From Phoronis australis (Eukaryota > Animalia > Phoronida), in assembly GCA_002633005.1 (NCBI GenBank), contig NMRA01000314.1, positions 433,234 through 497,233 of the forward strand: a stretch of DNA of 64,000 bases, written 5' to 3'. The notes beneath the pieces are model-generated. The model had not been told where the DNA came from. It made no database searches and worked only from the letters and a program-made list of their open reading frames with translations. This document shows positions 48,750-51,700 of this stretch, piece by piece. Positions within the stretch are counted from its first letter, which is position 1, and every line of letters starts with the position of its first letter. The position numbers and the translations under genes were made by a program.

Positions 48750-51700
48750 GTTTGGTTCACTCACAGTCCTACTCATACACAGACACTAGACAATGACCGG
48801 GCCAGCTAGAGACAGTTGTCATTGTTTATCGCAGTCACAGACACTTGCACGCTCTCGTCATGACATAGTCATTACTAATCAACCCTGTTTAAGAGCGAAG
48901 CATGATTGGCTAGTCACAACACTGACTCGATGAGAGTGCGTGCGACTGGTTAAAAGTGCCTGTTCACTGACGCAGAACTGCTCACAGTTTTGCACTCTCT
49001 TAGTCTGTACAGACAGGTTTCTTGTCTAGCACAGGTGTCCTCAGCTTCTGATCAATGCTGTAGTGGGGCGTAGGCGCAGCCAACCACCTTTTGGCATTTG
49101 AACGTAGCGCCTACGGACCATAAGTTACGTTCAGTGCTCAAGGTGATACGGTGGGCTTTGGGTGCCTACTTACCTATAATTTTACCACTACAGCACTGCT
49201 TCTGATCGTCCCCAATATAATACTATGGTATATATAATGTATTGGGGACAATCAGAAGCTGAGGGCGCCTGTGGCATGGTGTCTAGCAGTGTGAAGAAAA
49301 TTTCTCCCACATTGGGACTTGAACCTGGGTTGCACATGTGAGAGCGGAGCGTCTAATTAGCCAAGAGCTAATTGCCATTTGGCATGATACTTCGAGATGC
49401 TATATCTGGCTACTACGTCATACCTGGCCAAGACAAGTGTCTCAACACTCCTCCCCCTTCCGGAGAACAATCACGCCTCCTCATGGCTGCAGACTCGGCA
49501 ACACCCTAGCACCGTGGAATTTGCCCTGAGCAACAGGGGCTATACTAGACAGCCCGTGCAAAGTTATGTCAGGCTTTGAAGCAGGCCTAAAGTGGCAAGA
49601 CCAAAAACCTGCAACTTTGTTTTTTGATGCTTGGTCATACACAGACTCACAGTAAGCTGCCTAGCATGTCACTTAATCGTGTCAACTGTGGCACGATATA
49701 GGGTAGAATGAAACGAAAAAAATTGCAACAATTCACTGTCGCGTGGCAGAAACCTGGGCAATTCAATTCCATGCACACGTCAAAATATCAATATATACAG
49801 CTTTGAACGAAGTCAGTGAAGTATTTGTTCATTCTTCACTGTAATTCATATGTAGCCTGCTGACTGACCCAACCCGGCTTAAGTTGTTGTGTACTTGATT
49901 TTAGGGATAAGGGGACATGCAGCCATCTTGTTAGGGTAGGCAGGTGAAGTTGGGGTTCAAGCGCTTTTGAAAGCCATATTGTCTCTGTATTAACCCAATC
50001 GCTCCTGGTGGAAGTTTAAACGTTGAACATTATTGTGATTTATTTCCAGTGGACATGTTGTTAGTGGCTTGATCAATGCAGTAAAGAGAGCAATATCAGA
50101 TGAGAGTGTTCAAGCGCTGGTCATCACAGGACATGGCAAAAACTTCTCTGCTGGAGCTGATATCAAGGAGTTTGCAACTATGGATAATGAACGTGGTATG
50201 GTATATGGGCCAGCGTGGTGTGGGCCAGATCGTGTGGTCCAATAATGTGGGCCAGTATAGTGTGTATCTTCTTTGAGTAACACCAGGGGGCGACTTGACT
50301 TGTGTATACCATTTTGTATCAGTGTCATAAATACCCCCCAAGCGATACAGTGGAATGTCTATGTGGTAATTCGTCATGAACTAGAAAAACATAATTTAAC
50401 CAAAAATAACACTAAAATGTTTGCCATCCTCTTTAACCTTTTAACAAAATCAGAGGTCTTGGTTATTTTGATTTTGATTTTCACATTTAATATAGTTATG
50501 ATCACTTTCTGTATGTTTAATATGGTGTGTATGAAATGGTGGTGTTGGTGAATAAAATATTTGTTATAATTTATAATGTTACGTAAATTTCGGAAATTAA
50601 ATTATTTTCACGTGGTTGTAATGTGAAGAGAATACCATATGCTGTGTCTTGAGTTATAGGTATTCTGCACTAGTGATTGTTACCGTTGCAGCCCAGCGTC
50701 TAAATAATCTGGTGAATGAGTTACTTCACGCTTCTAAACCTGTAATTGCTGCCGTGAAAGGATTTGTGTTTGGCGGTGGACTGCTGATCGCTTTAGCCAC
50801 TCAATATACACTGGCTCATGCTTCTGCGAGGTACGTTCTTTTTCTCCTTTAGACTTTTAAAGTGTTTCTTAATTTTGCAGGCCTGCGACTAGCTGACGTG
50901 GTGAATGAGATAGCCCATGTTTCCAAACCCTTAGTGGCTGCCATCAAAGGATTTGTGTTTGGTGGTGGCCTGGAAGTGGCTCTGGGTTGTCATTATAGAT
51001 TGGCTGATAGTACTGCAAGGTATACTCTTCCCTCACTAGAGGGCATCACTGCATGCTATAGATTGACTTCTAGCAAAGACGTTAACAAGACTATTCACTT
51101 TGGCCGCCGCCATTATTGTGTCATGGACTGTGGCGACATCTAGCAGGGGGCTGTGTGCCAACAAAGTACGCGAGATGTCGACTACCATGGTCGATTTTAG
51201 TTTGTCAAATTTAAAATTGTGAAGTGTCTTTGTTTAAAATATTGAGAACAAAAAATATGAGCATTGTAATGGAAAAACACACTAATAGACAAAATAGAGT
51301 AAATTAAGAAAAAATTTTGGCAGCAAAGGCAATATAAATTACAAGATATACTTCATAAGCAAGAGAGTGACTCAGTAATTAGAGGTGAGCAGGTGAAAGC
51401 AGGTGATTGGAGGGTGGGAAGATTCAGAACCTGTAGTATTTTGTTCAGGGTGACCAGGGAAGTAATAAACATAAGGTAGATATGATGAAGAGGTAGGAGC
51501 ACAAACGGGGAGTGGGGCGCCCCTCAACCAAAAAGTTGGGGGCGGAGATAAGCTTTCTGCCCCTCCTGTATTCCAGGTGTTAATATCAGTCAATTAACAA
51601 TTAATTATCAAAACTTTCAACACACAAAATTTGTTTTGAAATAAAATTAAAAAATACCTCCCCCGACCATCAAATGTTTACTACGCCAATTTCCCAAAAG

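Follow-up and report, generated by a model that had tools for sequence, protein, structure and literature searches.

We have analysed a 64,000-nucleotide stretch of the genome of the phoronid Phoronis australis (GenBank assembly GCA_002633005.1, contig NMRA01000314.1, forward-strand positions 433,234 to 497,233; hereafter the window, whose own numbering is used throughout), in which a gene for EHHADH contains two homologous versions of its third exon. These exons, 3a and 3b, are used in a mutually exclusive manner in mature RNA. Exon 3b encodes a glutamate at residue 104, the counterpart of the residue that activates water in rat MFE-1; exon 3a encodes leucine at that position. Judged from the predicted protein, there is a marginally better than even prospect that 3a, which takes part in about a third of exon-2 joints, gives rise to a folded, hydratase-deficient EHHADH isoform that would keep its dehydrogenase and likely its isomerase activity.

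Alternative joining of exons 3a and 3b in RNA

Expression of the pair was followed in three stranded RNA runs (X6, X7 and X8) of the same species and from one study, of each of which 18-19% was mapped on positions 49960-51160. Joints were listed from a floor of 3 reads with 2 starts, rarer events thus being possible, and all counts refer to the rows listed. An earlier note, made from the DNA letters, had proposed mutually exclusive splicing at junctions 50195-50692 (exon 2 to 3a) and 50195-50881 (exon 2 to 3b), and the reads bear this out. Both junctions occur in all three runs, the former with 4, 3 and 5 reads (total 12) and the latter with 8, 4 and 11 (total 23, leaving out 3 further short X8 overhangs that match the start of 3b), so that 3a accounts for 12/35 exon-2 joints, or about one third (95% interval 21-51%). 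Exon 4 lies outside the mapped stretch; its first bases were nevertheless read in loose ends behind 3a (5 reads in X6) and behind 3b (7 in X7, 10 in X8). Neither a joint between 3a and 3b nor a loose end leading from exon 2 directly to exon 4, with both copies skipped, was found among the rows listed for the three runs, and the intron separating the copies showed no read depth in its bin beyond that expected from exon tails. The leucine codon of 3a is present in RNA with no alternative letter listed, at a depth of about 5 in X6 and 2 in X7.

The two exons are homologous, identical in length and reading phase, and bounded by intact splice signals, each beginning after TTGCAG, ending before GT and maintaining the same open frame. 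They are alike at 97 of 139 nucleotides, with 16, 9 and 16 differences at the three codon positions in turn, and identical at 26 of the 45 residues specified by whole codons, or 27 of 47, as the earlier note had counted, when the two split codons are included. Within the window, blastn recovered the pair as a gapless match of 162 nucleotides with 71% identity (E 2e-15), far above chance. The spliced model reproduces the CTG and GAA codons at residue 104 (Table 1), the replacement of GCHYR in 3b by ATQYT in 3a, and the placement of the two catalytic positions at residues 104 and 124. With either exon alone the model retains an open frame of 650 residues to the end of the window. Forms that are not exclusive meet early stops: at residue 124 when 3a is joined to 3b, at residue 80 when both are skipped, and at residue 126 when the intervening intron is retained.

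Exclusion may operate through this intron, which at 50 nucleotides would be too short for simultaneous use of its donor and branch point. Any branch point within it lies less than 50 nucleotides from the donor and therefore within the donor-to-branch distance (<50 nucleotides) described as a criterion of steric interference (PMC5740500). The branch point itself was not located. Joining of 3a to 3b would shift the frame, and the resulting stop could act as a backup to steric exclusion. A scan for docking-selector RNA pairing gave loose duplexes only, with no control run, and such pairing is not claimed.

It is scarcely credible that the pair is an artefact of assembly, in which two alleles or paralogs were set in tandem. 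A precedent lies elsewhere in the window, at 37551-40395, where a 1.4-kb tandem repeat with 96% identity is split by a single N at 38984 and may be two haplotypes joined end to end by the assembly; the second copy of this repeat extends to an LSM-domain exon at about 40200-40298. The copies of exon 3, however, are only 70% alike, with separate small allelic differences, and the same exon 2 is joined to both in each of the three RNA samples.

Predicted consequences of leucine at residue 104

Rat MFE-1 is the top PDB match of both exons, and alignment to it upholds the previous identification of the gene as EHHADH and of residues 104 and 124 as the equivalents of rat Glu103, which activates water, and Glu123, which exchanges the C2 proton (PMC10988713). 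The 3b form of the spliced model carries both glutamates. Position 104 is glutamate in 53 of 54 aligned homologs, the sole exception being a valine in a gene model from Lamellibrachia. In the 3a form the water-activating residue (Glu103 of rat MFE-1, Glu144 of ECH) is replaced by Leu104 in DNA and RNA alike; Glu124 and both oxyanion-hole motifs (GGG and AGAD) are retained. Because the established mechanism needs the water-activating glutamate, the 3a protein is predicted to be without enoyl-CoA hydratase activity. As to the dehydrogenase, rat MFE-1 variants with the E123A change or without domain A keep this activity, with kcat values of 2.4 and 1.6, respectively, vs 1.9 per s (PMC10988713).

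Rat MFE-1 also isomerises 3-enoyl-CoA, with Gly100 contributing to the oxyanion hole (PMC5715344), and isomerases have one catalytic glutamate, which in one class is the equivalent of ECH Glu164 and of Glu123 (PMC13126182). The 3a form displays the pattern of an ECI1-type site, with glutamate at the ECH Glu164 position, a hydrophobic residue at the Glu144 position and an intact oxyanion hole. Because it shares this arrangement, leucine first and glutamate second, the 3a protein is likely, by analogy, to keep delta3,delta2-isomerase activity; its single-glutamate site would work like that of ECI1, with Glu124 moving the proton. A mutant of rat ECH in the first glutamate is said to keep part of its isomerase activity. 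A more far-reaching reading is that selection has made the duplicated exon a reaction selector, by which one gene would supply a hydratase-dehydrogenase through 3b and an ECI1-like isomerase-dehydrogenase through 3a, the same glutamate having been lost independently in Lamellibrachia; we regard this as tentative and, on balance, doubtful.

Exon 3a might instead have acquired another reaction of the crotonase type or a different range of substrates, such as branched or unusual acyl-CoAs, through changes at residues 104-117 that reshape the pocket. Residue differences between 3a and 3b are indeed clustered, affecting 9 of the 15 codons at 104-118 vs 3 of the 17 at 87-103; crotonase folds host many reactions (PMC10988713); and an oxepin-CoA hydrolase model is the top NCBIfam match to 3a, with a score far under its cut-off (32 of 300 bits). 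Such a gain nevertheless appears improbable: little weight attaches to an NCBIfam ranking obtained with a 45-residue piece, 3a adds no catalytic side chain, acidic or otherwise, and the rest of the site is encoded by shared exons.

Origin of the pair and possible constraint on exon 3a

A tree of the 45 exon residues unites 3a and 3b as sisters with an ultrafast bootstrap of 99, and the two have in common His85, Lys95 and Val98, each present in 0 of 48 animal homologs (a set from which six rows, comprising Lamellibrachia and five non-animal or unplaced sequences, were left out). This sisterhood and the private shared residues indicate that the duplication arose within the animal's own lineage, and hence that the change in Lamellibrachia is independent; a common ancient origin with the Lamellibrachia valine was rejected on these grounds. 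A duplication of about 189 nucleotides would have created the pair, after which 3b may have stayed conservative and 3a changed fast, presumably still encoding a segment that folds. Neither a second copy of any other EHHADH exon nor a third full copy of exon 3 was found within the 64-kb window.

Exon 3a seems to have been maintained in fold and frame, a signal that bears on those two features and not on new chemistry. All 14 hydrophobic positions remain hydrophobic (P 0.086 under random change), and the Pfam ECH_1 score is 32.9 bits for 3a vs 32.2 bits for 3b. Under neutral change of 0.1-0.2 per site, 49-26% of simulated runs had no stop and intact AG/GT ends. The window's 16 other repeat pairs, some of which overlap, have 32 gap openings per 240 mismatches, a rate at which the probability of no indel is 0.135-0.018, and the joint chance of an intact frame, length and splice ends under neutrality is about 7% to 0.5%, a product formed by hand and to be read in the knowledge that only intact pairs get noticed. 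The ratio of amino-acid-changing to silent substitution rates (dN/dS), run between the 3a and 3b copies only, is 0.52 (bootstrap 0.22-1.2, Fisher p 0.10). Divergence without indels or stops had previously been taken to show that selection maintains 3a. The intact frame, length and splice ends and the hydrophobic core do suggest constraint, but the claim was overstated, in view of the breadth of this ratio and of a drop in profile fit that random change often equals, as given below.

These properties also bear on the proposal that 3a transcripts are the wasteful splicing products of a young duplicate, their protein being misfolded or degraded. The exchanges Arg112Thr and His110Gln at invariant positions would be expected to favour it, and a frame left intact by chance is not negligible given the many duplications screened. 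We nevertheless find it quite improbable, as 3a is included at 21-51% in 3 of 3 RNA samples and differs from 3b by 42 nucleotides without a gap or a stop and with its splice ends kept, and its Pfam fit equals that of 3b.

Several observations weigh against a working, hydratase-deficient 3a isoform. In the RNA, no X8 reads cover the 3'-terminal third of 3a, and among the rows listed a 3a-to-exon-4 row occurs in X6 alone. The 3a share is alike across runs (4/12, 3/7 and 5/16, P 0.86; the counts are small and the tissues not known), and the regulated choice implied by the splicing-controlled switch of the earlier note was thus not seen. At the protein level, 3a is without His110 and Arg112, each invariant in 48/48 animal homologs, although human trifunctional enzyme alpha has glutamine at the His110 position, as does 3a. 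Glu124 is encoded by a shared exon, so that its retention is uninformative about 3a, and if isomerisation by MFE-1 needs the water bound by Glu103, the 3a protein would lose isomerase activity too. A protein search with 3a returned no ortholog of it among 178 candidates. Its branch on the exon tree is about 11-fold longer than that of 3b (0.87 vs 0.08), and we infer that a dN/dS of 0.52 is equally expected from one neutral and one constrained branch. Finally, 39% of random mutants with 13 changes fit the animal EHHADH profile as well as 3a does (P 0.39), and the drop of 3a against a profile of 66 prokaryotic sequences is likewise similar to that of random change (P 0.24).

The main rival view, and a serious one, takes 3a to be a drifting duplicate with a crotonase site dead for all reactions, in which selection keeps frame, length and core packing for the sake of the working dehydrogenase that a third of transcripts would continue to supply. 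We judge this unlikely, although it finds a measure of agreement with the data: 13 polarised changes fall on 3a vs 6 on 3b, with the neutral-like profile drop; three invariant residues are lost; the rat variant without domain A keeps its dehydrogenase (PMC10988713); the window contains 16 other short repeat pairs, including decayed exon-end copies in the EHHADH gene itself; and Val104 in the Lamellibrachia model may mean that the hydratase is dispensable. Drift of this kind accords less well with the nature of Leu104, which matches both ECI1 and a natural bacterial pattern (see below) and whose CTG codon lies at least two amino-acid-changing steps from a glutamate codon. It accords less well, too, with the remainder of the exon: with positions 104, 110 and 112 set aside, a choice made post hoc, the changes in 3a are more conservative on the animal profile than random ones (P 0.02), and 3a fits 15 crotonases without His110 better than random change does (P 0.048).

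Polymorphism was tried as a test of relaxed selection and set aside as uninformative, shared exon 2 being as variable as 3a. Among the rows listed, 3a has 3 amino-acid-changing and 1 silent allelic differences, and exon 2 has 4 and 1 among the three RNA samples and the window, a number high for a housekeeping enzyme.

The EHHADH gene, its surroundings and known systems

The gene model, built by tblastn to EHHADH of Lingula, comprises 14 shared exons and the 3a/3b pair, with all internal boundaries AG/GT (Table 1). The gene continues past the end of the window at residue 650, and any C-terminal peroxisomal targeting signal would lie outside the window. It has the layout of EHHADH, an N-terminal crotonase domain fused to a 3-hydroxyacyl-CoA dehydrogenase; it groups with animal EHHADH, and the named homologs matched are peroxisomal bifunctional enzymes. 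The 3b form was placed by FastTree among 54 homologs chosen from search results (named animals, some unnamed animal-like proteins and a few outgroups); it joins Owenia (support 0.78), lies close to Lingula and Lamellibrachia, and falls outside the molluscs and the deuterostomes. Its top identity to homologs in the protein collection is 56.5% (64% for one shared exon), and the collection therefore holds no close relative.

Table 1. Features of the EHHADH gene in the window, and bacterial crotonases with leucine at the first-glutamate position
Feature	Position	Strand	Remarks
EHHADH exon 1, coding part from ATG	48679..48749	+	tblastn to Lingula EHHADH; RNA loose ends before exon 2 match exon 1 3' end
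Exon 2, common to both isoforms	50050..50195	+	Oxyanion-hole loop 2 by alignment; donor joined to 3a or 3b
Exon 3a	50692..50830	+	139 nucleotides, phase 1 to 2; GGGLL, ATQYT; derived, fast-evolving copy
Leu104 codon CTG in 3a	50784..50786	+	Replaces water-activating Glu (rat Glu103); aligned to rat MFE-1 and ECI1
Intron between copies, 50 nucleotides	50831..50880	+	GT..AG; in-frame TAG if kept in RNA
Exon 3b	50881..51019	+	139 nucleotides, phase 1 to 2; canonical GGGLE, GCHYR
Glu104 codon GAA in 3b	50973..50975	+	Equivalent of rat Glu103
Exon 4, common to both isoforms	54026..54182	+	Glu124 of GFPE, GAA at 54039-54041, equivalent of rat Glu123
Eleven further shared exons	54623..63973	+	Crotonase end, linker, 3-hydroxyacyl-CoA dehydrogenase part; all AG/GT, open frame
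Bacterial monofunctional crotonases	L049:4446-5522, L066:4212-5522, L079:4521-5522		Leu at first Glu (GGGMLIA), GYPE

Other duplications occur in and around the gene. At 53630-53753 are two decayed partial copies of the 3' end of 3b with its donor, 79-84% alike, one of them without the GT; they belong to a 66-nucleotide tandem repeat, which begins at the 3b donor and is interrupted by a 2.6-kb insert. The ends of this insert, 51102-51165 and 53528-53596, form an imperfect inverted repeat with a score of 51 (the top of 300 shuffles being 42), and its left end matches a dispersed repeat that is read on both strands in RNA and is present in DNA contigs of another organism; the insert is probably an old DNA transposon. 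Two further places, 56808-56962 and 59690-59797, have short tandem duplications at exon ends, namely an exon end and donor 81% alike and a partial LDTLCPPST repeat. Local duplication at exon borders is thus frequent in this gene.

No exon-3 pair was found in the other animals compared. Same-length EHHADH isoforms of Lingula, Ptychodera, Magallana (one pair) and B. belcheri showed no block of differences at exon 3; the comparison was drawn from 16 clusters, with Gigantopelta, Conger, B. lanceolatum and the remaining members outside it. The same-length isoforms of Lingula do differ as a block at residues 529-572, and those of Ptychodera at 481-494, both within the dehydrogenase part, which points to separate alternative exons in other invertebrate EHHADH genes; the matching exon is single in the window. 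With HMMER, 7 weak matches to 3a were found among 1.84 billion representatives; of the 4 matches listed, the two EHHADH-like pieces carry glutamate. In a set of DNA contigs from another organism, positions 49960-51160 were matched only by a repeat at about 51090-51147. Of 223 confirmed metagenome loci matched by the exon-3 stretch of Lamellibrachia, the best 80 are at most 63% identical to it, and no genomic locus of a worm is among them. Three of these 80 prokaryotic loci encode crotonases with GGGMLIA(L/M)ACD and GYPE, in which the second glutamate is kept. These three bacterial crotonases are closest to two-glutamate hydratases and make up an unnamed single-glutamate family; neither of the two that were scanned passed an NCBIfam cut-off among the families listed.

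Either-or exons that exchange catalytic residues appear to be rare, with 9 mutually exclusive exon events touching catalytic sites in one multi-species survey (PMC7954323). The two EHHADH isoforms form a natural, expressed pair differing at the residue that distinguishes hydratase from isomerase within an otherwise identical multifunctional enzyme, and the pair bears on whether MFE-1 can isomerise without its first glutamate, and on the possibility that splicing selects among the reactions of a single site. If the reaction-selector reading is true, the single-glutamate change that separates isomerases from hydratases has been re-created within one locus; if 3a is dead, it would still represent a clear case of a functional gene giving rise, at high inclusion, to a pseudo-enzyme domain.

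Among single enzymes, rat MFE-1 offers the closest parallel in layout, with the same crotonase and dehydrogenase parts and with Glu103 and Glu123 corresponding to Glu104 and Glu124 of the 3b form, but it has glutamate at the first position, where the 3a form has leucine. In that respect the 3a form is like human ECI1 (PDB 1SG4), which has leucine first and glutamate second (AGGCL ... GLNE), the leucine being as the earlier note had stated. ECI1, however, is a separate monofunctional protein, whereas the 3a form is EHHADH by sequence, with a dehydrogenase, its isomerase activity being predicted. Exon 3a does not fall within the ECI1 family: its top PDB matches are MFE-1 and trifunctional enzyme alpha, and none of the best 60 of 130 matches is a chain named 3,2-trans-enoyl-CoA isomerase. 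The EHHADH model of Lamellibrachia satsuma (KAI0214888.1) is similarly without the first glutamate (GGGFV, residues ~100-112) and keeps the second, but it retains HYR, has none of the derived residues common to 3a and 3b, and carries a long unrelated tail; this may be another naturally occurring EHHADH that is deficient in hydratase, or the model may contain the alternative member of an exon pair of its own.

Analogous exchanges by splicing are known from other enzymes. No description of mutually exclusive catalytic exons in EHHADH was found in the literature searched, in agreement with what the earlier note supposed, the supplementary event tables of surveys, which could still name EHHADH, lying outside its scope. 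In Drosophila, either-or exons of CRMP/dihydropyrimidinase swap a zinc-binding histidine for glycine, and those of CG42249 swap catalytic residues (PMC7954323, 10.1101/292813). Both resemble 3a and 3b in being homologous exons that exchange catalytic or metal-binding residues; they differ in affecting other enzymes and in that their swap suggests an on/off effect, whereas that of 3a would remove one of several reactions. Ketohexokinase is likewise a metabolic enzyme with two exclusive versions of exon 3 (3A and 3C, giving KHK-A and KHK-C) that confer different catalytic ability (PMC6464065). There the choice is tissue-specific and changes the affinity for fructose, whereas in EHHADH no regulation was seen and the catalytic base is removed. 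Mutually exclusive splicing of catalytic residues is therefore of a kind already known, as in CRMP of the fly; its occurrence in EHHADH appears to be new.

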